This document shows positions 8,690-27,759 of a stretch of 27,759 nt of DNA, in pieces. Position 1 is the first letter of the stretch. Every line of letters starts with the position of its first letter. Position numbers and translations under genes: made by a program. The notes beneath the pieces were generated by a model, which searched no databases, had not been told where the DNA came from, and saw nothing but the letters and a program-made list of their open reading frames with translations. The stretch comes from Thermoproteota archaeon (lineage in GTDB: Archaea; Thermoproteota; EX4484-205; JAAOZP01). The DNA is taken from assembly GCA_049700215.1 (NCBI GenBank), contig JBNAVT010000016.1:19852-47610 (forward strand), given 5' to 3'.

Positions 8690-9478
8690 ATGATCGGGTT
8701 AATCCTGGCGGCTGGAAAGGGCACTAGAATGCGGCCTTATTCCAACGCGATAAACAAGGAGATGTCCCTAATCGGGGAGAGCCCCGTAATAGAGTATAAC
8801 GTGAAGGCTCTTGCAGACGCCGGAATTAGAAAGGCTTTCATAGTGCTCGGAGAAGGCAAGTGGCAGATATTCGAGTACCTTAGGGACGGCTCCAGGTTTA
8901 ACATTGCACTCTCCTACATTTATCAAGACCTGGGTGAGAAGGAGGAGAAAAAGGGTACGGCGAAGGCGATACAGGTTGCTGAGGAATGGGTTAACGATGA
9001 TTTCATAGTTATCTATGGCGACTCGTTTTTCTACCCGTATGATTTCCTCAGGAGCGAGATTGAGCTCCACCTGAGGGAGAAAGCTGATGTCACAATGGGG
9101 ATCTACATGATGAAAGAGTATAAGGATTACGGTATTGTTCAGACTCACGGCAGGAGGGTTGTCGACATTCTGGAGAAGGCGACTGAGGAAGAGGCGGAGA
9201 AGACTAAGGTCAACGACATGTTTGCAGTCAACTCTGGCCCACTGGTTTTCACGCGTGAAGTCTTCCCCTATATTAAGAGGACTCCTGTTTCGCCAGCCGG
9301 AGAATACTGGATAACTGACACAATCAGGCTGATGATTAAAGACGGTAGGAAAGTATTGGCGTACAGGATACCCGAGGGAGTCTTCTGGAGGGACATTGGG
9401 AGAATGAAGCACAGAATGGAGGCTGAAGCATACCTCTTAAGCAAGCATTCTGACTATAACATGCTAAACAGGAAGTGA
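8690..9478 (+). CDS. Sugar-phosphate nucleotidyltransferase (RmlA/GalU-like NTP_transferase)
   Basis: GLILAAGKGTRMRP..NKEM, GTAKAI, YGDS, EK, GEYWITD and WRDIG. Confidence 0.92.
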   Translation: MIGLILAAGKGTRMRPYSNAINKEMSLIGESPVIEYNVKALADAGIRKAFIVLGEGKWQIFEYLRDGSRFNIALSYIYQDLGEKEEKKGTAKAIQVAEEWVNDDFIVIYGDSFFYPYDFLRSEIELHLREKADVTMGIYMMKEYKDYGIVQTHGRRVVDILEKATEEEAEKTKVNDMFAVNSGPLVFTREVFPYIKRTPVSPAGEYWITDTIRLMIKDGRKVLAYRIPEGVFWRDIGRMKHRMEAEAYLLSKHSDYNMLNRK

Positions 9479-10429
9479 ACAGGCTGAGCCCTCGACAGCC
9501 ATCCGGATAAGGCGTAACGCGTCTTCAAGCTTAATCTCCTGTTTAAACTGGATGCCGCCGATATTTGCCCTGCCCCCTGCGTTCACACCATTGTTTTTCA
9601 AGAGTTCAGCGTAAACCTTGCCGAGGTCTATGCCTCTTGCAGCTATGGTTGCGGAAACCGGTTTGCCCTTCCTTAAGCCTATGCAGACAACCACTTTTTC
9701 ACTCTTCTCCAGCTCGAACATTAACATTCTTCTAGCAGCGGCCTCAAGCTGGTCCGTAACATCGTACGTGAAGTAGGTGACTACACCTGTTCTTCCCAAG
9801 GAGCTTCTGAGCTTCCCAACCCTGTTCTCCACTAGACTCCATCTGCCTAGCTCGCTTTCAACCCACTCCAGAACACTGCCCCAATCCATCTCGTAAACCA
9901 TGCGTGTGAGGCTGGTTCTGACATCTTCCCTCATGCTGTTCAAGAGAAAAGCCTTATTCATCTTCACAGCCAGCTCTGAAACCATGTTTCCGGAGTCTAT
10001 CTCGTCAACAGCCTCGAGAATCCTGACACCGTTCTCGTTTAACTCGAGGAAGTCTTTGAAAACATTGAAAACAAGCCTTGAAACGCTTCTAATCCCGCTG
10101 TTAAACAGTATTTCCCTGGTTTTCCTAGAGCCGTTGTAGAGCGCTATTACGGGTGCTTGACCATGATGGTCTATCAAAACGTTGCTGCCAACGTAAGTCA
10201 ATCCTTTGCTTAAAGGGAGTTCTATAAGTATGCTTCTATAGGCTTTCACAGTGTCGATCTCACTGGGCTTAGGATACTGGATTCTTGAAACATCCGCGCC
10301 CAGAGCCTTCGCCGTTATTGAGGCGGCGAAAATCCCGTCTAGATCAGGGTCGCTCAATATCATGTACTCCGGATTATCCTCAACGAAGCGGAAGAGTATT
10401 TGCCTCCCCTCCTCGTTTTCAAAGCTCAA
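9464..10429 (-). CDS. DHH/DHHA1-family phosphoesterase
   Basis: Motif I DPDLDG, the DHH motif (LIDHHG) and a DHHA1-like AGGRANIGG. Confidence 0.82.
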   Translation of the reverse strand: MSFENEEGRQILFRFVEDNPEYMILSDPDLDGIFAASITAKALGADVSRIQYPKPSEIDTVKAYRSILIELPLSKGLTYVGSNVLIDHHGQAPVIALYNGSRKTREILFNSGIRSVSRLVFNVFKDFLELNENGVRILEAVDEIDSGNMVSELAVKMNKAFLLNSMREDVRTSLTRMVYEMDWGSVLEWVESELGRWSLVENRVGKLRSSLGRTGVVTYFTYDVTDQLEAAARRMLMFELEKSEKVVVCIGLRKGKPVSATIAARGIDLGKVYAELLKNNGVNAGGRANIGGIQFKQEIKLEDALRLIRMAVEGSACSLPV

Positions 10430-10526: not shown

Positions 10527-11429
10527 TCAAAAGATTTGAAGCATGCTTAAGAGGATAATGATTGCTCCGAGTGCCAGGCAGTAGTAGGAAAACTTGTGGA
10601 AGTTGCGTTTAGCAACGTACTTCCTAACTGTCCCTATGGCAAGGTAGCCGACGACAGCGGTTACCAGAATCCCTAGGCTAATCATCCAATACTCCTGCTC
10701 GAAACTAATTTGCTGAAGCTTAACGAGGCTTCCGCCTATTATGCTCGGGATCGATAAAAGCAGGGAAAACCGGTAGGCCTCTTCTTCCTCAACCCCTCTA
10801 AGTAGACCGGTTGAAACAGTTATCCCGGTTCTGGATATTCCGGGCGTGATTGCAGCAGCTTGAGAAACCCCTATCAGAAAGGAGTCTAAAGTACTCAGTT
10901 TCCTACTTGGTTTAGCATTCCTCGTCGAATACAGGATTAAGCCGTTGAGAAGCATTGCAACACCGGTTGCGAAAAGGCTTTGAAACAATGATTCGAAGAA
11001 GCTTTCAAGAAAGAAGCCCGCCAAGCCGATGGGAATTGTGCCGAGAGCAATGTATACGAGCATCCTGCCTTCTTCTCCTGAGAAATCTAGCCTACACACT
11101 GCTCTAAGAATGGATTGTAAATCGTTTCTTAGAAACAGTATTACCCCAATGAGGGTTCCCAGATGAAGCATGACGTCGAAAGCAACAGAGACTTTTATGT
11201 TAAACAGCTCCTGCACTATTACCAGGTGCCCAGTGCTTGAGATTGGAAACCATTCCGTTAAACCTTGAACGAGGCTTAGGCAAACCGTCTCCAGAATTCC
11301 CGCCAAGCCTGTTCCTCCCTGTTTGGAAAAATCGATGGTTAAAACCGCCTCGGCGAAGATAACTAGCGTTTGAATAAACAGGCAACTAGCGAGAATAAAC
11401 GTTAGCAACCGGCGTTTCCTCTTATCCAC
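10527..11429 (-). CDS. uppP: Undecaprenyl/polyprenyl-diphosphate phosphatase, UppP/BacA family
   Basis: VQGLTEWFPISSTGH, HLGTL, PGISRTG and AYRFSLLLSIP. Confidence 0.93.
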   Translation of the reverse strand: MDKRKRRLLTFILASCLFIQTLVIFAEAVLTIDFSKQGGTGLAGILETVCLSLVQGLTEWFPISSTGHLVIVQELFNIKVSVAFDVMLHLGTLIGVILFLRNDLQSILRAVCRLDFSGEEGRMLVYIALGTIPIGLAGFFLESFFESLFQSLFATGVAMLLNGLILYSTRNAKPSRKLSTLDSFLIGVSQAAAITPGISRTGITVSTGLLRGVEEEEAYRFSLLLSIPSIIGGSLVKLQQISFEQEYWMISLGILVTAVVGYLAIGTVRKYVAKRNFHKFSYYCLALGAIIILLSMLQIF

Positions 11430-11486
11430 AGCCTTTCATAGCAACCACCTTATAAAAGTTTTACAGTTGATAAAACTCTCTACGAA

Positions 11487-14400
11487 TTAAGATTTTTCAA
11501 CAAACTTTCTTGCCGATATCTCATACATCTTTCCTTCAGCATCGAACGTTATGATGTTTTTGTTCAGCCGTATTGCTGCTATTGCGAGCGCTGAGCTTAA
11601 CAGGCCGTCATCCGAGTCCAAACATACAGCATCTATTGTGAGGATTTCTTCACAAAGCCTTTCGACAAGCGTATTCATATCTCTTGATTCAACCCTCCTA
11701 ACCTCGATCGTCGGAGGCCAGATGCCTTCAGACCTAACTCTCCTCCGCAATTCCCTTACCTTGCCGCTTACATCCGATCTTGAATAGATGATTAAAAACT
11801 GAGGCCGGTATTTTCTAACAACTGTTGCAGCATACTCTACCGACTCACCTATTACTACAGCCACGTTAAATCTTAGTGTAGACCATTCTAGGACGAGTTT
11901 CCTAACGTGAGTTATAACTTCATGCGCATTCGACTCAAGCATAACTGCGTAGAGAGACTTCGTATGAACGTAAGCCGCATACTCTTCACCATCCTTCTTA
12001 ACCTCGATCGTGGTTAAGGCTGTAAATGGCCTATTGCCTCCCTTTCCATACCTGAAACTCACCGAATATGAGACATTCCCGTTCTCATCCAGTTTTTCAT
12101 CGCGCGCAACATCTGAAATTACCAGCTCTAATGCTGTACTGCTTTGAGGCAATCTTTCATAAAGATAGTTAACAAATGTTTCAACCTTCTCCGAAGGAAT
12201 CCTCACTGGGATTCGAACCGTCCACACTCCTTCCTTAACTACTTTTTCTTCCATTCTCCACCTTCTCAAAAGCGAGGGGGTTGCTATTTTCGCAGCCCTT
12301 AGGGCAGGGATTGTTGAAGAAACCATGGCTGTCAGAAACGCCATCATTATTATGGAGAGCATATCTATAGGAGTAGTTTTCACGTCGATAGGTATGATCA
12401 TGTTAGAGACGTCAAACACTTTGAATATAATCATGCTCAATATATAGCCAATACCGCCGCCGATGAAGCCGAATACTCCCGCCTCCACTATGAACAGGCT
12501 GGAAATATGAGTAGGGTTTAAGCCTACGGATGAAAAAATGAATATTTCGTTCCTCCTTTCATAAACCAGCGTGTAGAATAGCAGCATAATGTTTAACACG
12601 GTGATGATCATTGGAATAAGAACTGACGCGCCAAAGACCTCGACGGAACCCCCTCTGAAGTAGTAGGTTATGCCCTCTGAACTCGGCATAGTTATGACTG
12701 AATAGTTGGCGAGCAAAGCTAATCTTCTCGAAACCTCCCTTGCCTGCGCATTGTCTTTGAATGTGCAGTAGAGCGCGGAAACGTATCCGCCTAATCTTTG
12801 AGCGGTGAAAGCATCTGTTATCAAGAGGTTGTCAGCGGGCACTGGCTGGGGACCGTTTTCAAAGCCCGGAAGAATATACATGGGTAAGAAATGGCTGCCA
12901 TCTGGCTCTTTTATCCCGTTAACAAGCCCACCGTCAAATATGCCGGCTACTTTTAGCCTTACTCCCCTGAAAACTATGGTCATGCCTACGTCCACGTCTG
13001 CTCTGGTTGCCAAATACCTGCTTATAAGAACAGCATTACTATTGTTAAACAGGCCTTCTATTGCATGCTCAGGGTATGTGGCGCTCCTAATCAAGCCTAG
13101 AGACGGATCTCCCTCGGAAACCCCCCTAACCCCATAGATCGGCACCTCGCTAACATAGTCCAGGGCGCCATACGCAACGGGAGTTATCACCTTATAGTCT
13201 ATTCTTGAAACCTCTCTCTGCGCGCCTATGAAACTAAAATCTTCAAGCGTGAGAGGGCCGGAAGGCTTGATCACCATCGACACTGGAGGCTTATCGGCTG
13301 GCCATGTTTTCGCCACCATTATAGCGTTAGTCGTTAGAGACACCCTTATTGAAGTCAACGTTGATACTGCTATAATCATTATTGTAATGGAGACGAGAGT
13401 TAGCGTAGTCCTTAGCTTCCTCTTTTTCAAGTTTCCAATAGAGTATGAAATAGCGATCAGTAGGGCAGGTATCAATGATACTCCTCGCTCGCTCTTTATT
13501 TCAAGAAAGTAGGGGGCTAAAAATACGAGTAGAAACATGATTATAACAATGTAGATTCCTGTCTGAAGCTCCAACGTTGTAATCCTTGAAAGGCCTGGGA
13601 ACACCTGATAAGCTATAGTCATTAAAACTATGAATGCAATCGCTGTAAACATCGCGTATTGATCCTTCCTCTCTGCAATTATCGAGCCGATGGATAAGGA
13701 TAGAATAGCCACGATCACGAATACTATAATCTGGTTGGTCCGTGTTTCCCTCACGATATTTTGAATAGCATCGATTATTAATACGCTGCTCATCACGGCT
13801 TCTTGCTGATACGCCAGTATCTTAATTGGGTCAGAGGCGTTTAAAACGGCTAAACTAGATCTTTCAATCTGCTCCAACCTGTAAAGCTCCAAGCCCACGT
13901 AGAGCCCAATGTTCCTGGTTTCCTCTACATGTCTTTCCGCAGATTCAATGGTTTCATTGACGAGAGTTTGGTAAGACTTTACCTGGAGGAAAGCGGGTTG
14001 ATCCAGGTAAATTTTAGCATTTTTGCTTAATCTAATCGGCTGGGTACTATTCCCCATTTCCACTACTGTTCTTCTCCCACCGACAGTGATTGAAACCAGT
14101 ATTGACAAGTCTGTTTCAGAAGGAACTATAAGGGTATTTCCAGTTATGTTTAGCAAGCCAAGTAGTGGCAGATGGCTTGAATCATAATTCAGCATTAGTT
14201 GATTAAGCCGCGTCTCATTAAGTAGAAGGACTTGCATTTCCTGCGTTGGAATCGTCAGGTCAAAGGGGGAGGGAACAACAGCCAGTACTTTTGCAACTGC
14301 TCCTGGACATAGGTTTATTTCTATGTTCCTGGTTTCTCTGACTGATAGTTTTCTCAGGCTTATTATTTGAGGCACATAAGTATCTTTTTCGTTTAGCGAG

Positions 14401-16862
14401 GGACCTATGATCCTTATTTCTGAGCCGGAGGGCACTGCTATCGTTGCTTCATCCCAAACCCTGGTGACCATGTATGTCTCATTCACGAACACTAGGAACA
14501 ACTGGGGTTCCCTAGGCTTCGGATTCAACGTTATTTTAAGCATTGATGACGGCTTTACGATGAAGCGTTTAGAATTGGTGTCAATCCTAGTGCCGTTTGC
14601 CAGGAGCAGCTCCGTTGAAACCTCCAGCACATGCTCGGAGTCAACATGGTGTGGCGCCTCGAAGACACGTTTTACGGTAAGATAGGCGGGTGATGATGAA
14701 GAGGGTATTTCAACACTTATGTTCTCACTGACTAGAGTTTCATTGGAGGTTATGTCGTTCAACCTCCAGCTTAGCACCGCGTCCAAAGGCTCCTGGAACA
14801 CGTCGTTCACAAGCCAGAGCCCAATCCTAACTGTTGAGCCTGGGAAAAAGAATAGGGATGTCAGATTATGCCTATAGTCCCCGTCAACCATTATTACGGT
14901 ATGCACAGGGTTGAAAGCGTTCCTAACCTCGTAGTAAGACTCTTTCTTAAAGCCGTAGGAATCTACGATTGAGCCGCTGACGAGCAGGGGGTAGTCTGTA
15001 AGCGGAAGAACATTGACGCCTATAGAAATATTGTACCTAAGTATTCTAACCCTGTCTATCGCATTCCTCAGCACCAGGGACTGGTATTTCTGGCTTAGCT
15101 CAATAAAGCTGGAGAGGTTCTCAGCCGCATCCCTCCAGTAGGCGTTTAGGAAACCCGGGTCAAGCCCCTCCGCCTCAAGAAGCTGAATAACCTGCTCATA
15201 GGGCAGGGTTTGAGCCTCTCCCCAGAATGAAGAGTTTAAACTGGGCAAGCCCACTGGGCTAATTAAGTTTGGAAAGGACTCCTTGTAATGCAGGTAGTCA
15301 ACCCAGCTGCCTGTCCCCCAACCGTAGTCTACGAACCTGTCAACATAATCGTATGCCTCAACGTATGATAGAGCTATGATTCCCTTATTCACCTCTTTAA
15401 CCAAGACGCCCAGATCACGGTCAAGGTAGAAATTGGTTCCAGAACCATAATAGGGTGACTCCTTGTTCAGCCACGGCGGGAGGGTGTGGGGGCAAACTAT
15501 TGTTATCGAGGGATAGTTGTAAGTTAGCAGCAACAGTTCAACGAGCTGAGTCTTCACGAGCCTAGCGTAGTCTTCAGAGTAGTCTAGGGCGGGGTAGGCG
15601 CCTATCAAGGGGAAGTCAAGCTGGACAATAAAGCCTTTCAAAGAGGTTAACTCATAGAACTCTTTCGGCTCAACATGCGCGAATGACCTTAAGAAATTTA
15701 CATTGGCTCCTCTCAGCAGGCTGAGCGTCTCATTCATTTTCGAAAAAAGACTCCGATCAGTAAGCCATTCTAGCCTGGAGAAATACGACCCACCCCTCAG
15801 AAAAACACTCCTACCGTTTACTTTAACGTAAGGATTCTTCTGGGAGATGGATCCCTCTAAGAAACGTATTCCAAAGATTGTCTCAACAGACCCGGCGTAC
15901 TCATCACCATGATGCAGACTAATGTTAAGGAGGTAGACGTTTGGAACGCCAATATCCCATGGGAACCAGTATGCTGGATCCCGGAGGGAGATGCTTAACG
16001 TTTCCCACCTTCTTTCTCCAGCGGAAAGCTTTATGCTGAAAGACTGCTCTAAGCTGGCTGTGTTATTTGAGCCAAGGCCTTTTATTCTCACGGATGCTGC
16101 AAAACTCTCGTCAACGCCCCCTTTGTTCTGAAGTAGAACACGCAGGTTCAAAGAGGCAGGGTTCAAGTACTGTGCAACATCAACTAAGACCAGGTTAATA
16201 ACGGGATCCAGTGTCCCGACGAGGGTGACGCCTCCAGATATTCCGATGAAACTGTTTCGAAGGTCTGGAAGAAACTCTGAGAAAGAGTATATTCCCATCG
16301 GATAGACCCTGGATTCATACGTTTCTTGAACCGGGGACTCCAGGTAAAGGGTCAGCACGTTTACTCCATCACGGAATGCGACATTATCTATGTCGAAGAA
16401 AAAATTGGAGAAGTAACCCACGTGCTCCCCCAGGTAGAAGCCGTTCAGCCAGGCTTTCGCAGCAACCCAGACTCCTGAGAAAACAAGCCTCAGCCTCTGC
16501 CCCTTCATAGTTTCAGGTATTGCAAAAGTCTTCCTCACCCATAGCGAGCTGTTCGATCTAGTTGACTTAAAAAGGAAGGGTGCCTCAACCCTGCTCCAGG
16601 AAGAATCATCATAATAAGGATCATAGTAAAGATTAATGTTTCCAGGGTCGAAAGCGTCAACCTTGTAGCTCCACCTCCCAGTCAATTCATATTTGGAGAG
16701 ATAGAAGTAGTCGAAAGGCGCCAAGTAGGCAGAAGCCTTGTCAACCAGGTTTTCAGAGGGCTCTACGAAGAAATATCGTAAACCAGGGAGAATTAGAGCC
16801 GCTATCAAAAACGATACTGAGACTATTGTTAGAAGCGGCTCTACGATTCTCCTAGGCGCCAT
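11487..16862 (-). CDS. Giant membrane fusion protein: GH2 beta-mannosidase-like ectodomain + MacB/FtsX-like ABC permease + C-terminal CARF-like domain
   Basis: N-terminal TM anchor. GH2 N-terminal and Ig motifs WVRKTF, LVFSGVWVAAKAWLNGFYLGEHVGYF, WFPWDIGVPNVY, FGIR, VNGRSVFLRG and ANVNFLR. MacB signature NLKKRKLRTTLT, FtsX signature YERRNEIFIFSSVG..LFIVEAG, IPALRAAK, and a Rossmann-like tail. ATG at 16862 (GTG at 16865). Confidence 0.85.
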   Translation of the reverse strand: MAPRRIVEPLLTIVSVSFLIAALILPGLRYFFVEPSENLVDKASAYLAPFDYFYLSKYELTGRWSYKVDAFDPGNINLYYDPYYDDSSWSRVEAPFLFKSTRSNSSLWVRKTFAIPETMKGQRLRLVFSGVWVAAKAWLNGFYLGEHVGYFSNFFFDIDNVAFRDGVNVLTLYLESPVQETYESRVYPMGIYSFSEFLPDLRNSFIGISGGVTLVGTLDPVINLVLVDVAQYLNPASLNLRVLLQNKGGVDESFAASVRIKGLGSNNTASLEQSFSIKLSAGERRWETLSISLRDPAYWFPWDIGVPNVYLLNISLHHGDEYAGSVETIFGIRFLEGSISQKNPYVKVNGRSVFLRGGSYFSRLEWLTDRSLFSKMNETLSLLRGANVNFLRSFAHVEPKEFYELTSLKGFIVQLDFPLIGAYPALDYSEDYARLVKTQLVELLLLTYNYPSITIVCPHTLPPWLNKESPYYGSGTNFYLDRDLGVLVKEVNKGIIALSYVEAYDYVDRFVDYGWGTGSWVDYLHYKESFPNLISPVGLPSLNSSFWGEAQTLPYEQVIQLLEAEGLDPGFLNAYWRDAAENLSSFIELSQKYQSLVLRNAIDRVRILRYNISIGVNVLPLTDYPLLVSGSIVDSYGFKKESYYEVRNAFNPVHTVIMVDGDYRHNLTSLFFFPGSTVRIGLWLVNDVFQEPLDAVLSWRLNDITSNETLVSENISVEIPSSSSPAYLTVKRVFEAPHHVDSEHVLEVSTELLLANGTRIDTNSKRFIVKPSSMLKITLNPKPREPQLFLVFVNETYMVTRVWDEATIAVPSGSEIRIIGPSLNEKDTYVPQIISLRKLSVRETRNIEINLCPGAVAKVLAVVPSPFDLTIPTQEMQVLLLNETRLNQLMLNYDSSHLPLLGLLNITGNTLIVPSETDLSILVSITVGGRRTVVEMGNSTQPIRLSKNAKIYLDQPAFLQVKSYQTLVNETIESAERHVEETRNIGLYVGLELYRLEQIERSSLAVLNASDPIKILAYQQEAVMSSVLIIDAIQNIVRETRTNQIIVFVIVAILSLSIGSIIAERKDQYAMFTAIAFIVLMTIAYQVFPGLSRITTLELQTGIYIVIIMFLLVFLAPYFLEIKSERGVSLIPALLIAISYSIGNLKKRKLRTTLTLVSITIMIIAVSTLTSIRVSLTTNAIMVAKTWPADKPPVSMVIKPSGPLTLEDFSFIGAQREVSRIDYKVITPVAYGALDYVSEVPIYGVRGVSEGDPSLGLIRSATYPEHAIEGLFNNSNAVLISRYLATRADVDVGMTIVFRGVRLKVAGIFDGGLVNGIKEPDGSHFLPMYILPGFENGPQPVPADNLLITDAFTAQRLGGYVSALYCTFKDNAQAREVSRRLALLANYSVITMPSSEGITYYFRGGSVEVFGASVLIPMIITVLNIMLLFYTLVYERRNEIFIFSSVGLNPTHISSLFIVEAGVFGFIGGGIGYILSMIIFKVFDVSNMIIPIDVKTTPIDMLSIIMMAFLTAMVSSTIPALRAAKIATPSLLRRWRMEEKVVKEGVWTVRIPVRIPSEKVETFVNYLYERLPQSSTALELVISDVARDEKLDENGNVSYSVSFRYGKGGNRPFTALTTIEVKKDGEEYAAYVHTKSLYAVMLESNAHEVITHVRKLVLEWSTLRFNVAVVIGESVEYAATVVRKYRPQFLIIYSRSDVSGKVRELRRRVRSEGIWPPTIEVRRVESRDMNTLVERLCEEILTIDAVCLDSDDGLLSSALAIAAIRLNKNIITFDAEGKMYEISARKFVEKS

Positions 16863-16865
16863 CAC

Positions 16866-16968: not shown

Positions 16969-19305
16969 ATGCCTGTGAAAGCACCCAGCCGGATTATAGA
17001 AACATTTAAAAAACACTATTACATGCTATCCCTGCTTCTGCTCTTCCTATACGCATTGCTTTCCGTCAAGACGATTTTTCTAGAAGGCATGATCCCGGGC
17101 TGGGACAACCCTGTGCACTACGTGAACTCCTACCTCACAGCACTCTACATGTTTCCCAAGCTGGATATTCTAGGCTGGGACCCGTTTAACCAGTTCGGCT
17201 GGGTCTTCAACCTATACTATAACCCAGGCATGAGCATCTTCGTCGCGTCAGTCTACTATTTTTTCCTAGGGCTTATAGACCCTTTAATGGCTTACAAGAT
17301 TGCATTTTTCCTAGCGTATTTCCTACTGGCCCCGGCAGTCTTCATGTTCGTCCACGCCTTAACAGAGGATAAAATCGCACCCGTAGTCGCCTCACTGCTT
17401 TCAATAACAACCTTCACCGAAGAATCCACATGGTTTGACGCGGGCCTTAAGCAAATGTACTACATAGGCATGTGGCCAGAGAGACTGGGCTTAGTCTTCC
17501 TGTTTTTCAGCATAGCCCTCTTGGCTTACTCCTTTAAATCTAAAGAGCTTTCAAAAACCCTGCTTTTCACTGGACTGGGCTCCCTGTTTTTCTCCATGTC
17601 CGTTCTATCTCATGTGATGATGGGGATTTCTGCAGCATTAATCGCTTTCTTACTATGGCTATTTGTCTCCGGCAGAACATTGACTGATCTTTGTTCAGTT
17701 GACAGGCTTAAACCGGTCTTGAAAACGGAGGCCGTTGTCTTGGCGAAGTTTGCATCCATGGGCCTGCTTTCTTTAGGAATGGCTGCTTTCTGGATGGTCC
17801 CGTTGTTTCAAACGATAGGCGCGTATCATAGTTTTCCAGCCGTCACATGGGCTACTGGACCATATATTTTTGGAGAAATATTTGCAAGTATGCCGTGGTA
17901 CTTGCTGGTTTTTTATTGTCTAGGTGCTTTCACACCTGTTTACGCTGGAAAGAGGATCTCCTATTCATCCCTAGCCGCCTCTGCAGTTATCCTTATACTG
18001 CAGTTCCTGAACCTAGTTAACCTGTACGACGGCAACATCGGGCTGAGGCTTATTTTCGCATTCATGGCGTCACTGGTTTTACTGGTTTCTTCCAGGGATC
18101 TCTATGTGCCGTTCCTGCTCGCATCCATATCCATCCTAGGTTTTCTGGCAACAGGCCCGGATACTTATCTTGTTTACTTCGGCCCGTTTAGGCTCGACCT
18201 ACTTAGCCTAATACCTTTCGCAAGGAGCTTCGGCTACTCTAAGTTTAACGCTCCAGTTAGAATTCTAATACTCAGCTTAGCGGCTCTAGGTTTCTCGAAG
18301 GTTTTGAGCAGGCTCTACGCGCTCTCCAAAACAACAAGGTTTCCAGCAGTTTTCTCGATAGTCTCCGGATTACTAGCGTTCTTGATCCTTAACTCTTCGC
18401 TTAGTGCTCAACTGCAGAACACTGATCTCGCCTACCCGTTTTCCAAGGAGAAGGTTTTCAAGCTAACCTCAGACTACCCCGGCTTCGAGAAGGTTGACGA
18501 GCTTATAGGCTGGGTGGAGAACAATGTTCCCAAAGACACCTACATACTGTTTCAGGATACTTTGGATTTCGGCGACAGCAAAGACTTTCAGACGTCGCAC
18601 TATGTCTACATTGCTTCAATAAGGCTAAAAAGACCTATTATCGGGGGTTGTTTCGGGACCCGCTACATAACTAATACCTATGCCCTTACTGAGGGAGGGT
18701 ATCTTCTAAGTTTCTCTGTTGAAAAGCTGATTAAGAACAATCTGATTCAGCGACTGATGGATGAGCTTGGAATCGGTTATATTGCTATCCACGATTCGAG
18801 ACTAATAAATTTCTTAAACTCCTCCGCCGATTTTCGCCTTGAGCACTATAATGGGCTGTACGCAGTTTTTCGGAAAACTAATTCCTCAAAGATAGTTTTC
18901 ATCCAGGGAGATGGGACAGTTGAATCAGTAGATTTCACTATAAATAGAATTCAAGTCACCGTATCCAACGTTTCTGGAAACACTTCGTATCTGATAGTTA
19001 GGCAGGTGAACTTTCCAGGCTTCACTGCTGAGGCGGATGGAGAAATTATCCCGGTAGACACGTACTATCCAAAGCTGCCAAACGTAATAACGGGTTGGCA
19101 TGGAATCCAGCCAGTATTCAACTGGAGGATACCGTTCATTAAGGTGAAAATACCAGCCGGGTCTAATAGGGTAACGCTTAGGTTCAGTATGCATACCGTG
19201 GGAAGCGATGTATCAAAAATAGCCTGGGCAGTGTTTCTCTGTCTTCTGATCTCCGGCATAGCCCTGCCGATAGCTAGGAAGCTACATGGAAAATGGCGAA
19301 AGTAA
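16969..19305 (+). CDS. Polytopic membrane protein of the PTPS-related/YfhO type, putative GT-C fold glycosyltransferase
   Basis: First TM followed by GWDNPVH (acidic residue in the first external loop) and GWDPFNQFGWVFNLYYNPG, many TMs, and YfhO-like C-terminal LIVRQVNFPGFTAEADG with a terminal TM. Confidence 0.75.
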   Translation: MPVKAPSRIIETFKKHYYMLSLLLLFLYALLSVKTIFLEGMIPGWDNPVHYVNSYLTALYMFPKLDILGWDPFNQFGWVFNLYYNPGMSIFVASVYYFFLGLIDPLMAYKIAFFLAYFLLAPAVFMFVHALTEDKIAPVVASLLSITTFTEESTWFDAGLKQMYYIGMWPERLGLVFLFFSIALLAYSFKSKELSKTLLFTGLGSLFFSMSVLSHVMMGISAALIAFLLWLFVSGRTLTDLCSVDRLKPVLKTEAVVLAKFASMGLLSLGMAAFWMVPLFQTIGAYHSFPAVTWATGPYIFGEIFASMPWYLLVFYCLGAFTPVYAGKRISYSSLAASAVILILQFLNLVNLYDGNIGLRLIFAFMASLVLLVSSRDLYVPFLLASISILGFLATGPDTYLVYFGPFRLDLLSLIPFARSFGYSKFNAPVRILILSLAALGFSKVLSRLYALSKTTRFPAVFSIVSGLLAFLILNSSLSAQLQNTDLAYPFSKEKVFKLTSDYPGFEKVDELIGWVENNVPKDTYILFQDTLDFGDSKDFQTSHYVYIASIRLKRPIIGGCFGTRYITNTYALTEGGYLLSFSVEKLIKNNLIQRLMDELGIGYIAIHDSRLINFLNSSADFRLEHYNGLYAVFRKTNSSKIVFIQGDGTVESVDFTINRIQVTVSNVSGNTSYLIVRQVNFPGFTAEADGEIIPVDTYYPKLPNVITGWHGIQPVFNWRIPFIKVKIPAGSNRVTLRFSMHTVGSDVSKIAWAVFLCLLISGIALPIARKLHGKWRK

Positions 19306-20153
19306 ATGATTTTTTAGTGGAAGCAAGGATTCTAGACTGGTATAAGAATCTACTTATACTGCTTGCACCATTCTTCGGCGGAAAGCTTCTACTCCCAGTC
19401 TATTATCCTGGCCTTTTATTAGGATTTCTAGCCCTGTCAGCGACCTCCAGTGCTTGCTACGTGATTAATGATATTAAAGATGCTGCTCAGGATGCTTATC
19501 ATCCTAGGAAAAAACATAGGCCTGTGGCTAGTGGGAAAATGAGTAGGGCTTCAGCGCTAATCTTCTCGATTATCCTACTGGTTTTTTCCCTCTTCATCTC
19601 CTACCGGGTAAGCATCCCCTTTCTAGTACTGTGCATCTCCTTATTCCTAAACTCGATCACCTACACTTTTTTCCTAAGGGATATAGCGTGGTTAGACCTG
19701 CTCAGCATATCTCTTAATTATATCATTAGGTCGCTAGCAGGAGGCGAGATAGTTAATGTGTATATTTCACCATGGCTGTTGATCAGCGTCTTCTATGTTT
19801 CGATGCTCTTTGCATTGTCGAAAAGAAGGGAGGAATTAACCGCTTTAAATAAACCTGAACATCATAGAAAGTCTTTCAAGCATTATGATGTGGCTCTTAT
19901 AGATCAATCGATCACCATATTCTCAACCCTAATAATAATCTCTTATTCTCTCTATACTTTTCACTCGCCGTATGCAGATGGTCTACTGCCTTTCACGATT
20001 CCGATAATAACGCTAATAGTATTGCAATTCATTTCGATTTCGAAAAAAACTGGGGAGGCTGGAATTATAAGAAGACTCCTGTCCAGCAGGATCATAGTTA
20101 TAAGCCTCCTTATCTGGCTTGCAATAATGTTTTACCTAATATATTTAACATAG
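19293..20153 (+). CDS. UbiA-family prenyltransferase, decaprenyl-phosphate phosphoribosyltransferase (Rv3806c-like) subfamily
   Basis: R..DWYKNLLI, YVINDIKDAAQDAYHPRKKHRPVASG and LSKRREEL. Overlaps the upstream gene by 13 bp. Confidence 0.85.
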   Translation: MAKVNDFLVEARILDWYKNLLILLAPFFGGKLLLPVYYPGLLLGFLALSATSSACYVINDIKDAAQDAYHPRKKHRPVASGKMSRASALIFSIILLVFSLFISYRVSIPFLVLCISLFLNSITYTFFLRDIAWLDLLSISLNYIIRSLAGGEIVNVYISPWLLISVFYVSMLFALSKRREELTALNKPEHHRKSFKHYDVALIDQSITIFSTLIIISYSLYTFHSPYADGLLPFTIPIITLIVLQFISISKKTGEAGIIRRLLSSRIIVISLLIWLAIMFYLIYLT

Positions 20154-20212
20154 ACTTTTCAAATAATTGCTTGAAACAAGATTTATTAGTAAAGCGAGAG
20201 GAGTTTATCAGC

Positions 20213-21364
20213 ATGGTCCATCTTTATGAACGGGACTGGGCGAGGGATGATATTCTTAAACGAGTTGGCAGCATGGAGCAGATTGCTGGGGTGAAAATAG
20301 CGGAATTCTCCAACGGTTTTGAACGCGGTGTCAAAGTTGCCGTAGTCAGAAACGGGGACCTGGATTTTCTAGTGGCAATAGACCGAGGTATGGATATAGT
20401 GAATGCAGGGTATAAAGGAGTGCCGTTAAGCTGGATTAGCCCTACCGGGATAGTTGCACCCGGTTTCTACGAGCCGGAAGGACTCGGGTGGCTCCGCGGC
20501 TTCCCAGGTGGGTTAATGACTACCTGCGGCCTAACCTATATGGGTGCACCTACTTTCGACGATGGCGAGAGCCTGGGGCTGCATGGACGCATATCCTACT
20601 CGCCGGCTAATCTGTTGAAAGCCGATTCCTACTGGGAGGGGGAAAATTACAAGATTGTTCTAGAAGGGGAGGCTAGAGAATCAAAGGTGTTTGAGCCAAA
20701 CATCGTATTGAGACGGCGAATAACAACGATCCTAGGGGAGAGACGCATAGCAATACGTGACCTTGTGACGAACCGCGGGTGGAAAACACAGCCTCTGATG
20801 ATACTGTACCATATCAACATAGGTTTCCCCCTGCTGGACGAGGGTGCCAGGTTCTTGTCAACAACCGGCTGCCTCGCCCCGAGAGACCTGGACGCCTTGG
20901 AAGGTGTTGAAGACTTTGCGAGTGTCCATGGGCCAAGGCCCGGCTACAGGGAAAAAGTATACTTTCACAGCATGCTGAGTGATAGCGATGGGAACGCCTA
21001 TGCTGCCATATTGAACCATAGGCTTCTCGGAGGCTTGGGAGTATACGTGAAGTATAGCACTAGAGAACTTCCAAGATTCGTTCAGTGGAAAATGCTTGGC
21101 GAGGGGACATACGTTATGGGCATGGAGCCTGCGAACAGCCTCGTCTTGGGAAGGGACAAGGAGCGAGATTTTAAGACGCTGCAACATATTAAGCCTCAGG
21201 AAACAAGAGAATTCAACATTGAGATAGGCGTTTTAGTGGGAAGTGAACTAGCTATTTTTGAAGAAAGGATAAACAGTGTGACAGGCATGAGGAGGCCTCA
21301 GGTGTTTGAAAACCTGGAAAGCTTCATCGAACTCTCTGCGGCTAAAAAGCAAGGTGGCTTCTAG
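20213..21364 (+). CDS. Aldose 1-epimerase family protein (DUF4432)
   Basis: DRGMDI, GWLRGFPGGLMTTCGL, GLHGRIS, LYHINIGFPL and YVMGMEP. Shine-Dalgarno GAGGAG precedes ATG 20213. Confidence 0.87.
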   Translation: MVHLYERDWARDDILKRVGSMEQIAGVKIAEFSNGFERGVKVAVVRNGDLDFLVAIDRGMDIVNAGYKGVPLSWISPTGIVAPGFYEPEGLGWLRGFPGGLMTTCGLTYMGAPTFDDGESLGLHGRISYSPANLLKADSYWEGENYKIVLEGEARESKVFEPNIVLRRRITTILGERRIAIRDLVTNRGWKTQPLMILYHINIGFPLLDEGARFLSTTGCLAPRDLDALEGVEDFASVHGPRPGYREKVYFHSMLSDSDGNAYAAILNHRLLGGLGVYVKYSTRELPRFVQWKMLGEGTYVMGMEPANSLVLGRDKERDFKTLQHIKPQETREFNIEIGVLVGSELAIFEERINSVTGMRRPQVFENLESFIELSAAKKQGGF

Positions 21365-25651: not shown

Positions 25652-26184
25652 CCATAAAAAGGATTGGCCTAGGAGAGTCATACAGGCTCCTGCATCCCAG
25701 ACCAGTGAAGCAAGGAAGGAGGGTTAATATCATAAGCTGCTCCTGGGTTACCACTGTGAGCGACGACCCTCCGCTTATAGCAATGGCCCTATGGGAGAGA
25801 GGGGTATACTCATGTTTTGATAGACGAGACCGGAGAGTTTACGGCAAACATCCCCTCTTCAAAACTACTTAAACAGGTAGCGCGCACTGACAGGTTTGGC
25901 TAGCAGGCACCGGAAGCAGTAGTAAAGCGATAAGGCTAAGCTTCTAAAAGTCAGCTTCATCACCTCTAGCACAATTAAAGCGCCGGAATATAGGAATGCT
26001 TAGGGATCCTTGAATGTAGAGTTAGAGATAGAATGAAATTCTGAGAGCAGATTCTGTATGTTGCTGAAGTCAAAAGGCATGCGCCGAAGAAGGTTTGTTC
26101 AAAAAAGGTGTGTGGAGTAGTGGAGCAGAATTCCCGCTTCATCTTGCTGGCAAAGCCTTCGCAATACCGAAGCCGGTTGATTAA
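25652..26184 (+). pseudogene. Flavin reductase (DIM6/NTAB-like) family pseudogene
   Basis: Fragments across frames: YRLLHPRPV, NIISCSWVTTVSDDPPLIA, YTHVLIDETGEFTANIP, QVWLAGT, DKAKLL..IKAP, ECLGILECRV, in-frame TGA, EQILYVAEV and PLHLAGKAFAIPKPVD*. Several frameshifts; the start position is approximate. Confidence 0.8.
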
Positions 26185-26357
26185 ACGGCAAACCCTGTCA
26201 TTTTTCCCATTTCTTCTAACAATCATTCTTATCTGCTTCCTTTATCAAAATCGTTAACATCGTTCAAAATTTTCTAATAGAATTTGCAATACATGTTCTT
26301 AAAGAAAAAGAAACGATAGGCGCGCGCGAAGCTTCGCGTCACACACTTAGTCGGAGC

Positions 26358-26655
26358 TTTCTATTTTTAGAAAACTCTGAAACACCCTTTTTGACTTCTC
26401 TAAATAAGATGTGAGGCTTTTGTAAACAATACTTATGTTCATTCTTTTTCGGGGCGTCTCACCCGGAATGTTATTCGTAGACAATGCTTATAGAAGCATC
26501 TTGTAGCAATGAAGCGGGCTTAATCATCAAAAGTTATTCGAGGCCGCGCTCTTAAATACAACAATACTAATAGAACGCGGATAGAGGCTTAGGCATAAAA
26601 CCCAGGGAGTCTCCTCAGATCATCCCAATGAGACCTCTTTTCTATTTTTAGAAAA
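26358..26655. repeat. 17-bp exact direct repeat TTTCTATTTTTAGAAAA, itself quasi-palindromic
   Basis: Copies at 26358-26374 and 26639-26655. Related TTTTCTA..AGAA motifs at ~26270-26282 and ~26733-26747. Confidence 0.75.
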
Positions 26656-26752
26656 ATCTATGTAACGGCTTTTGGTTTTTCAGTATTTTACTCGCATCCC
26701 GATTTTCGTATTCTTGAAAGTTTTGAAATAGATTTTCTATAAGAAAATATTG

Positions 26753-26774
26753 AAAAAACGCGCGCGCGTTTTTT
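26753..26774. repeat. Perfect 22-bp palindrome A6-(CG)5-T6
   Basis: AAAAAACGCGCGCGCGTTTTTT read directly from the sequence. Confidence 0.85.
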
Positions 26775-26876
26775 ATGAATTTTTACCTTCATATCAACTG
26801 GCAAGATTGAAAGAGTTTTGGAAAAACAATAAGGACATAAAGAATGTTTATATAATACAATTCGGAGGAATGCCCT

Positions 26877-27759
26877 ATGAACTCTTGGGAAAGAGTCGTA
26901 AAAGCTATGCAGCTTTCAGCATCCGATAGGATTCCAATCTATGAGATGCACATTCCTCCTAAAATATCTTCAGTAATATTGAATAAGAACGTGAATGAAA
27001 TCATGTACGCTAATACCGAGGCCTTCTATAACCTGATAGTTTCAAAGGCAGAGATTAACCTGGATAGGTTGAATGCGCAAGTGGCAGAGGAACAGTTGAC
27101 CCTTTACAAGAAGCTTGGGTTAGATTGGATAAGAGTTGGCGGAGCCTACACCGGCGTTCCAAAGAATGTTAAAAAGCTTGAGGATAACGTGTGGCAGGTT
27201 AATGGCGGACGCTATAAATGGATAGGAGACACAGCCTGGTTTCTGGATGAGCCGAAAGAATACGATCCGGACGAGGTAATAAGGGCTTGCAAGAATAGCA
27301 GTATAAGGGTGAACACTAGTGTTTACGACATATTGAGGCGGATTTCTAAAAAAGTTAAGGGCGAGGTCTTTCTATCCTTTGACGCAGACGGAACTTGGGG
27401 GCCAATAGTTTCAAATCCAAATCTGCTTAAGCATGTTCTCGTCTGGGCGTATAGAAGACCTGATGCTGTTGAAGCCCTGATCAACTATCATACTAAAATT
27501 GCAATAGAATACGGGAAGCATGCAATTGATGAGGGCGCTGATGCGATTCAGCTCTGCGTTGACTATGGTAATAAAAATGGTCCTTGGCTTTCTCCACCGA
27601 TGTTCAGAAGATTCGTGAAACCGGCTTTAGAGAGGCATGTGAACGAATTCAGAAGAAAAGGGGCTTTTGTAGTGGTTCATTCAGACGGTTATATCATGCC
27701 GCTGCTGGGCGATATGGTGGATGCAGGGATTAATGCCTACCAGGGCATAGATATAATAG
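26877..27759 (+). CDS. Uroporphyrinogen decarboxylase / MtaA-CmuA methyltransferase superfamily protein (truncated by the window end; absent from the ORF track)
   Basis: Manual translation: MNSWERVVKAMQLSASDRIPIYE...KKLGLD...IDEGADAIQLCVDYGNKNGPWLSPPMFRRFVKP...VVHSDGYIMPLL.DMVDAGINAYQGID. TTTATATA at 26847-26854 and Shine-Dalgarno GGAGG at 26864-26868. Confidence 0.88.
   Translation, partial: MNSWERVVKAMQLSASDRIPIYEMHIPPKISSVILNKNVNEIMYANTEAFYNLIVSKAEINLDRLNAQVAEEQLTLYKKLGLDWIRVGGAYTGVPKNVKKLEDNVWQVNGGRYKWIGDTAWFLDEPKEYDPDEVIRACKNSSIRVNTSVYDILRRISKKVKGEVFLSFDADGTWGPIVSNPNLLKHVLVWAYRRPDAVEALINYHTKIAIEYGKHAIDEGADAIQLCVDYGNKNGPWLSPPMFRRFVKPALERHVNEFRRKGAFVVVHSDGYIMPLLGDMVDAGINAYQGIDII

Follow-up and report, generated by a model that had tools for sequence, protein, structure and literature searches.

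The stretch of DNA considered here (27,759 nucleotides, "the window") comes from a hot-spring archaeon of the phylum Thermoproteota (GenBank assembly GCA_049700215.1, contig JBNAVT010000016.1, positions 19,852 to 47,610 of the forward strand; the genome, G000, is 94.6% complete, and the contig, C16 in our numbering, measures 47.6 kb). Its minus strand carries at 11487..16865 an open reading frame (ORF) of 1792 amino acids (aa), with a GTG start in the ORF listing, whose product (P0001; "the giant") joins a head resembling glycoside hydrolases of family 2 (GH2), a permease of the MacB/FtsX kind and a tail that ends in a CARF-like domain. An earlier, sequence-only reading of this DNA had recognized just this three-part anatomy in one uninterrupted ORF; it was right on both counts, and each element that it named is present. 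(A technical note: the second codon of the ORF, at 16860-16862, is ATG, which explains why that reading let the gene end at 16862.) The possibility that the ORF is a product of chimeric assembly, which the same reading had raised, is ruled out by independent contigs and by relatives of equal length: in an independent public run (X3) the segment 11400-17000 lies whole in a single contig of 8803 nucleotides at ~94% identity, a contig of a second run (X2) bridges 11400-15168, and no joints across the giant were reported in the contigs of these runs. The giant matches 38 related proteins, many of them 1780-1810 aa long and covering 99-100% of the query; its full-length orthologues come from metagenome-assembled genomes of Brockarchaeota, "Thermoproteota" and Thermofilaceae, obtained from different sources.

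The N-terminal membrane anchor (aa 11-29, 16779..16835, hydropathy peak 2.46; this and all other parts of the giant are given in minus-strand coordinates) is followed by an ectodomain (aa ~40-765, 14571..16748) that is, as had been surmised, GH2 beta-mannosidase-like. Pfam Glyco_hydro_2_N matches aa 104-171 (32.4 bits; cut-off 28), and Glyco_hydro_2_N2 (aa 103-184) and Glyco_hydro_2 (aa 235-334) also score above their cut-offs; NCBIfam beta-galactosidase and glucuronidase models extend to ~aa 456, the closest PDB match is the beta-mannosidase 5n6u (aa 109-655, E 1.4e-14), and a weak Mannosidase_ig match lies at ~aa 682-764. The giant has the jelly-roll, the Ig-like domain and the (beta/alpha)8 (TIM) barrel of GH2, with a mannosidase Ig/CBM-like domain behind them. 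What it lacks is the pair of catalytic glutamates. Where the Thermofilaceae-type orthologues read HNEPPW at the acid/base site the giant reads PHTLPPW, with L462 (15480..15482) in place of Glu, and where they read PTEFGAQ at the nucleophile site it reads PNLISPV, with L534 (15264..15266) in place of Glu: HTL stands for HNE after the "NHPS..W" strand and NLIS for TEFG, and neither mark of an active GH2 enzyme is retained. Because both catalytic Glu are replaced, the giant's head cannot, judging by these alignments, be an ordinary retaining glycosidase. Nor is it alone: both Glu are missing in 27 of 43 GH2-bearing relatives (P0001-P0026, a Brockarchaeota-type clade, and P0044) and kept (HNE together with [TS]E[FL]G) in 13, the remaining 3 being variant or unalignable (P0051 with HDE/SDFG, L020 with HER/SEFG, and P0054). 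The catalytically dead clade is still 53-95% identical across its full length, and its fold would therefore have been selected for something other than hydrolysis. Binding of a glycan, and not its cleavage, is the most likely role left to the dead head; the Thermofilaceae orthologues still look catalytic.

Behind the head come a beta-rich region and a helical stalk (aa 766-1045, 13731..14570). From ~aa 900-970 onward the giant has its counterpart in Bathyarchaeia relatives that are devoid of GH2 (their profile, PDLC01991, covers aa 972-1788). Kyte-Doolittle hydropathy, which also picks out the N-terminal anchor, places three extra transmembrane (TM) helices at aa 1046-64, 1071-89 and 1103-21 (together aa 1046-1121, 13503..13730); the motif GNLKKRKLRTTLT accompanies these three TMs and a weak amphipathic segment at aa 1128-46. 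The permease module proper (aa 1128-1534, 12264..13484) then runs from an amphipathic helix through TM1, a putative extracytoplasmic domain and TM2-4, with a coupling helix, ERRNEIFIFSSVG, between TM2 and TM3; its TMs lie at aa 1155-73, 1415-33, ~1457-81 and 1502-20. Pfam FtsX (PF02687) matches aa 1416-1527 (E 4e-16, 59.6 bits; cut-off 25.5), and MacB_PCD matches aa 1153-1382 with 25.6 bits, slightly below a cut-off of 27 that some relatives exceed; among PDB entries the module matches MacB (5nik), LolC (7arh) and LolF, and it also matches the NCBIfam lolCE model. A failure of the segments to match GH2 or FtsX profiles, which would have told against the original assignment, was not what Pfam returned: they match both. 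Two motifs, NLKKRKLRTTLT, which starts at N1145, and ERRNEI..SVG, at aa 1436-1448, are largely invariant across the family; hydropathy and sequence locate all of the membrane elements named at the outset (three TMs, the MacB amphipathic motif and the FtsX motif). The family alignment shows no variation at the residues of the coupling helix, which aligns with ERTREIGILKALG and with similar motifs of the genome's ATPase-linked FtsX genes, and its signature, ER..EI....G, is the same in the giant and in three small FtsX genes of the genome that are linked to ATPases.

No Pfam domain was found in the 258-aa tail (aa 1535-1792) by profile search. A model generated from a 28-sequence alignment (predicted local distance difference test, pLDDT, 86.8) resolves it into two domains, and two independent fold searches lend strong support to its earlier designation as "CARF-like". 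The top Foldseek matches of the tail are Csa3, Can2, Cam1 and Csm6 (E about 1e-5, probability 1.00). VIA-align, run against 48,161 chains, returns CARF proteins for all of its top 17 matches (Csa3 with Z 15.0 and a root-mean-square deviation (rmsd) of 2.3 Å over 121 residues, Can2 with 14.8, VC1899 with 14.3); the first non-CARF Rossmann fold, that of MurG, appears at Z 8.8. In the predicted structure, then, the last 127 residues (aa 1665-1791, tail residues 131-257; 11493..11873) have the CARF fold. For the alpha+beta N-domain of the tail (aa 1540-1664, tail residues 6-130; 11874..12248) the closest folds are the AP-2 appendage, BamC-N, KA1 and TBP, at Z of 9.7 or less; these matches of a modeled domain are too weak and too mixed to name one family.

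The CARF part is predicted to associate with a second copy of itself, at 0.68 versus 0.02 for the best of 3 controls. Among homo-pairs of known structure 20 of 30 came up to that mark, as did 1 of 23 single chains; the runs share at least 90% of their contacts and give the partner a pLDDT of at least 84. The predicted interface includes the most conserved loop of the tail (residues 215-224, LDSDDGLLS), with LDSDDG on the dimer axis. Canonical CARF domains hold their ligands by means of a Ser/Thr after beta1 and a D/N-x-S/T-x3-R/K motif after beta4. In the 28-sequence alignment the tail reads G-E-S after beta1, which is compatible with the first of these, and L-D-S-D-D-G-L-L-S after beta4, without a basic residue (the Bathyarchaeia read S-G-E-P). 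An acidic loop on the axis would fit badly with a polyanionic ligand.

How common is such a protein? The tail turns up in only 52 representative clusters among 1.84 billion proteins, and is always C-terminal; in 37 scanned proteins it stands behind an FtsX domain in all 33 that have the tail, and the N-terminal ectodomain is GH2, CarboxypepD_reg or none. To call the architecture undescribed, as the sequence-only reading did, was too strong: PADLOC-DB v2.0.0 contains a profile, PDLC01990, "CARF_m8--CARF_Beta-galactosidase_LolE_TM", that matches the giant end to end (aa 11-1790 against positions 9-1788 of 1791; E 0, 1209.5 bits), and the GH2-less Bathyarchaeia form matches PDLC01991, "CARF_m8--CARF_LolE_TM". 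Catalogued is one thing and characterized another, and it is the first that holds: a literature search that did not take in the CARF census of 2020 retrieved no paper with CARF and FtsX together, none with "CARF_m8", and none that characterizes the architecture. (The name CARF_m8 reportedly goes back to that census, by Makarova and colleagues.) By sequence the giant is a member of this catalogued, uncharacterized CARF_m8 family. It belongs, again by sequence, to a diverged and catalytically dead branch: diverged, since its PDLC01990 score is about half the 2353.6 bits of a Thermofilaceae orthologue. New here are a conserved GT-C partner in the company of genes for a lipid carrier, and the finding that the family is not associated with Cas10. 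One Thermofilaceae giant (L024:3965-9312) is broken up into a row of five ORFs (973, 220, 116, 309 and 147 aa), and is either a pseudogene or the victim of assembly frameshifts.

The partner is encoded directly upstream of the giant and is transcribed divergently from it (o778, P0040; 778 aa; 16969..19305, plus strand). Among the 61 loci of relatives that were fetched for comparison of neighborhoods (L001-L061), o778 adjoins the giant in 16 of the 21 GH2-giant loci with at least 2.5 kb of upstream sequence and lies 7.8 kb away in L025; it is the one neighbor kept beside the giant from Brockarchaeota to Thermofilaceae/Thermoprotei loci (34-38% identity). The 39 members of its family without exception bear the annotation "hypothetical" and are distributed over the same lineages as the giant. 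A model of o778 from a 23-sequence alignment (pLDDT 89, predicted template-modeling score, pTM, 0.91) finds AglB (3waj; Z 23.4, rmsd 3.8 Å over 455 residues), STT3B (21.3), AftD (20.0), Pmt1/2 (19.8), ArnT (18.3) and PglB (17.7); the top 20 matches of the structure search and the top 31 of Foldseek are all GT-C, and the neighbors of o778 in the ESM Atlas are YfhO/PTPS_related (0.98-0.99). As modeled, o778 folds as an AglB/STT3-like GT-C membrane glycosyltransferase with a C-terminal extracytoplasmic domain. GT-C enzymes carry catalytic acidic residue(s) in their first external loop, and the oligosaccharyltransferases among them a WWDYG motif. In the family alignment of o778 the first loop has a nearly invariant D46 and an invariant D71; D530 is invariant within "FQDTL", and there is no WWDYG. 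A canonical STT3/AglB gene is found elsewhere in the genome, on contig C25, so o778 would be an additional GT-C.

The end of o778 is overlapped by 13 nucleotides by a UbiA-family gene (19293..20153, plus strand), whose best match is the NCBIfam decaprenyl-phosphate phosphoribosyltransferase model (177 bits, and 221.7 for the L020 orthologue; the curated cut-off is 234), and the giant's next neighbor downstream, encoded on its own strand, resembles BacA/UppP, the undecaprenyl-diphosphate phosphatase (10527..11429, minus strand). Glycan sensing or transport by the giant, as first proposed, remains a reasonable hypothesis; GT-C, UppP and UbiA neighbors, the last resembling synthases of decaprenylphosphoryl-5-phosphoribose (DPPR), make a link to a lipid-linked surface glycan more concrete.

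Several further observations touch these genes. Beside the o778 orthologues of L022 (4061-6085, minus), L023 (5575-7566, minus) and L027 (5527-7539, minus) an ORF of 664-675 aa takes the place of UbiA; the copies of L022 and L023, the two that were scanned, carry CarboxypepD_reg, a domain that also heads the GH2-less CARF_m8 proteins of Bathyarchaeia. A protein of 1534 aa (P0085) combines MacB_PCD, FtsX (761-868) and the tail N-domain (894-1021) with a PMT_2/PMT GT-C domain (1078-1253); its domain sequence hints at a "Rosetta-stone" link between FtsX-tail modules and GT-C glycosyltransferases. Following UbiA on the same strand is a DUF4432 protein (window 20171-21364, plus; E 9.6e-103), syntenic within the Brockarchaeota clade. 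Two genes downstream of the giant, on its strand, lies the gene of a 321-aa protein with a DHHA1 domain (window 9464-10429, minus; E 7.7e-6). Farther off, window 26001-27000 has a GC content of 0.374, against 0.43-0.51 in the rest of the window, and from 26227 to 26876 it has no ORF that reaches 80 aa.

Where is the ATPase? That the window encodes no cognate ATP-binding cassette (ABC) ATPase, as the sequence-only reading stated, is borne out on the whole contig: of the 43 PF00005 matches of the genome none falls on C16. The genome holds 12 FtsX matches, three small permeases and nine giant ORFs (1017-1792 aa). Each of the three small ones adjoins a LolD-like ATPase; the nine giants do not adjoin an ATPase of the LolD type, and eight of the nine are without CARF. 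A fourth ATPase of the LolD/FtsE/MacB type (G000:C1:21833-22576, also L062:6834-7577, plus strand; 223.5 bits with the LolD model) has no permease nearby. Its neighbors are a phosphoribosyltransferase gene on one side and ABCE1/RLI on the other; it shares 61% identity with the ATPase on C9 that pairs with a short FtsX of 243 aa, and is a candidate for the shared motor of the nine giants. Among L001-L061 a LolD-like ATPase together with a short FtsX adjoins only CARF-less Bathyarchaeia relatives (L029, L031, L040 and L045). L010, L011 and L019 do have an ATPase downstream, which is part of a different, four-gene ABC cluster; the ATPase near the fragmented, CARF-tailed L024 matches a sugar-type ABC protein, and eight further loci (L071-L078) yielded no LolD-like ATPase above 40% identity. 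We favor supply of the ATPase in trans, because the coupling-helix signature is kept, because the C1 ATPase has no permease beside it, and because the CARF-less relatives do stand beside a LolD-like ATPase.

Other giants of the FtsX kind have settings of their own. In L045 (8192-15599, Bathyarchaeia) a short FtsX (225 aa) and the LolD-like ATPase lie between two giant FtsX genes without CARF (1050 and 976 aa), and both of them follow one another head to tail with the 976-aa gene on a single strand; judging by this arrangement, giant and short FtsX may form hetero-oligomers served by one common ATPase. The genome under study also has five paralogous giants of ~1500 aa that join Peptidase_M28 to FtsX, with no adjacent ATPase (L065:3158-7744, minus; L067:4579-9099, minus; L068:5184-9737, plus; L069:4172-8842, plus; L070:4616-9115, plus); each adjoins one or two membrane proteins (640-694 aa), several of them with DUF6785/DUF6784 or a weak OPT match.

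We tentatively take the giant, with a confidence that stops somewhat short of even, to be a type VII ABC-like mechanotransducer that acts on a lipid-linked surface glycan and is not a CRISPR effector. It would work as a homodimer of the MacB/FtsX type, its extracellular GH2-fold head binding a glycan and its cytoplasmic CARF dimer binding a small ligand that is probably not a cyclic oligoadenylate (cOA) made by Cas10. Its associate would be the divergent, AglB/STT3-like GT-C o778; the adjacent UbiA enzyme, which resembles DPPR synthases, would help to make the polyprenyl-phosphate-sugar donor that o778 uses, and UppP would return the lipid carrier to circulation. Shifts in conformation, passed on through the FtsX helices, would couple the cytoplasmic state, set by the ligand on CARF and probably also by a LolD/FtsE-type ATPase that turns over ATP and is encoded at another place in the genome, to the handling of lipid-linked or surface glycan outside.

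A good deal weighs against this proposal. The assignment of o778 to GT-C comes from one predicted model and from language-model features: the protein has no sequence match in Pfam (E up to 10), NCBIfam, PADLOC or the PDB (phmmer and profile), and Pfam finds nothing in 12 aligned members of its family either. It is absent from the giant's side in a paralogous clade (L011, L016, L019) and in L024. UbiA and UppP score below the NCBIfam curated cut-offs; the linkage of UppP is confined to close relatives (the Brockarchaeota clade), and that of UbiA extends over the Brockarchaeota clade and L020, not to L022, L023 and L027. The CARF-tailed Bathyarchaeia without GH2 have variable contexts and no GT-C neighbor, so that the link to glycan may hold for the GH2 subfamily alone. 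Binding of glycan by the dead head is inferred from conservation; solved CARF dimers already known to the model may lie behind the predicted one; and the flanks of the CARF-tailed loci examined contain no LolD-like ATPase.

If CARF proteins are the nearest structures of the tail, why not a defense effector, in which CARF senses the cOA of a type III CRISPR system and the FtsX module or ectodomain damages or remodels the envelope (abortive infection), on the model of Cam1 and other membrane CARF effectors? The closest structures of the tail (Csa3, Can2, Cam1, Csm6) speak for it, as does the residence of the family in PADLOC-DB, a defense database. So does the DHHA1 phosphoesterase gene two genes downstream: a membrane DHH-DHHA1 nuclease degrades cyclic tetra-adenylate (cA4), according to a review (PMC8284326). 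That gene, however, has no match in PADLOC or NCBIfam and is syntenic in close relatives only. Against the effector stands the company that the giant keeps: two Cas10 models find no match in the host genome, no Cas domain occurs among 20 neighbors in the window or 105 neighbors in 13 related loci, and the conserved partner has a glycosyltransferase fold. Within the phylum the full tail is present in 26 of 201 sampled genomes, and a Cas10-like match (E up to 1e-5) in 5 of these 26 (G031, G085, G087, G122, G159) versus 68 of the 201 overall; because the tail-bearing genomes are kin to one another and not all of them are complete, the counts show no association and are not proof. The acidic axis loop LDSDDG, without the basic residue of canonical CARF motifs, points the same way. 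The CARF_m8 giant is probably not a CRISPR accessory, and a cOA-dependent effector is a very improbable reading of it. Nutrient capture is a less remote prospect, though still an unlikely one: the giant would bind or process polysaccharide at the surface to which it is anchored, Thermofilaceae having kept the active enzyme and Brockarchaeota a lectin-like version of it. This would suit the 13 of 43 relatives with intact catalytic residues, the TrmB sugar regulator and sugar genes nearby, and the five M28-FtsX giants beside OPT-like DUF6785/DUF6784 proteins. The paper on Brockarchaeota reports extracellular glycoside hydrolases and use of polysaccharides (PMC8065059); it mentions neither GH2 nor mannosidase, FtsX or permease. 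Set against nutrient capture is the nature of the gene that stays beside the giant across a distance of 30% identity, which has the biosynthetic GT-C fold and is not a sugar transporter; no sugar ABC or major facilitator superfamily importer is conserved there. A feeding enzyme that has lost both catalytic residues and is nonetheless 53-95% conserved is also hard to explain.

The remaining rival accepts mechanotransmission and dispenses with the motor: the KA1-like and CARF tail would replace the nucleotide-binding domains (NBDs), and ligand-driven closing of the CARF dimer would take the part of ATP-driven NBD dimerization in driving the permease, or information would flow from the outside in. 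The contig without an ABC ATPase and the CARF-tailed loci examined, none with an adjacent ATPase, speak for such a device, whereas the CARF-less L029, L031, L040 and L045 do adjoin a LolD-like ATPase, and the predicted dimer of the tail matches the FtsX dimer of MacB and FtsEX structures. But the signature of the helix that couples to NBDs is kept just as in ATPase-linked FtsX genes, the genome does have a LolD-type ATPase without a neighboring permease, and absence in cis is the rule for all nine giants, eight of which have no CARF, whatever the tail. We consider a motor-less giant quite unlikely, and return to the mechanotransducer of surface glycan with its ATPase in trans as the preferred reading.

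What would follow if this reading were true? The reach of CARF domains would extend beyond CRISPR and anti-phage signaling, and in archaea the glycan chemistry of the envelope would be under the control of type VII ABC mechanotransmission. The reading would also point to an unannotated GT-C family (o778, n=39) and to a donor pathway of the polyprenyl-phosphoribose type in Thermoproteota. One can take the thought further, to a form that we hold to be unlikely as it stands: CARF signaling outside immunity, in which a small molecule of the cytoplasm, other than the cOA of Cas10, acts through FtsX together with an ATPase or in place of one and switches a pseudo-glycosidase outside the cell; this in turn would control a hitherto unrecognized archaeal GT-C glycan polymerase supplied with polyprenyl-phospho-pentose. 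Such a giant would be an archaeal counterpart of envelope remodeling under the control of FtsEX and, as an ABC machine gated by CARF, the first of its kind. The catalytically intact Thermofilaceae orthologues and the dead Brockarchaeota ones make a natural experimental pair.

The giant can be placed among known systems as follows. CARF_m8 (PDLC01990) has the same architecture from end to end and is, in the literature searched, a catalogue entry: function, loss of catalytic residues and partner genes were not found there. FtsEX controls extracytoplasmic hydrolases (EnvC-amidases, PcsB, CwlO, RipC) by type VII ABC mechanotransmission, and the giant shares with it the FtsX-type four-TM module, a putative extracytoplasmic domain and the coupling helix, as well as a hydrolase fold on the outside. 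That fold, however, is covalently fused and dead in the giant, which adds three TMs, an N-terminal anchor and the CARF tail, has no adjacent FtsE and resides in an archaeal host without peptidoglycan. MacB, LolCDE and YbbAP-TesA, which are type VII ABC systems as well, pull hydrophobic or lipid-anchored substrates out of the membrane. The giant matches MacB and LolC, and the lolCE model, by sequence, and YbbAP-TesA provides the precedent of a type VII ABC permease coupled to a hydrolase (PMC12654888); the giant differs from all three in the lack of an NBD in cis, in its cytoplasmic sensor domain and in its putative polyprenyl-linked glycan substrate. With Cam1, Csa3, Can2 and Csm6 the tail has in common the CARF fold (Z 11.6-15.0) and a predicted two-fold dimer; the acidic loop at the axis and the want of a Cas10 association set it apart, and its CARF follows an ABC-type permease at the C-terminus instead of being joined to a nuclease, a helix-turn-helix or a pore. 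In mycobacterial arabinan synthesis a UbiA-family DPPR synthase (Rv3806c) feeds the GT-C arabinofuranosyltransferases Emb and Aft. The host here is archaeal, o778 fits AglB/STT3 best, and the UbiA of the window scores below the NCBIfam cut-off; the likeness lies in a DPPR-synthase-like UbiA gene that overlaps the gene of a GT-C-fold protein with AftD among its top matches.

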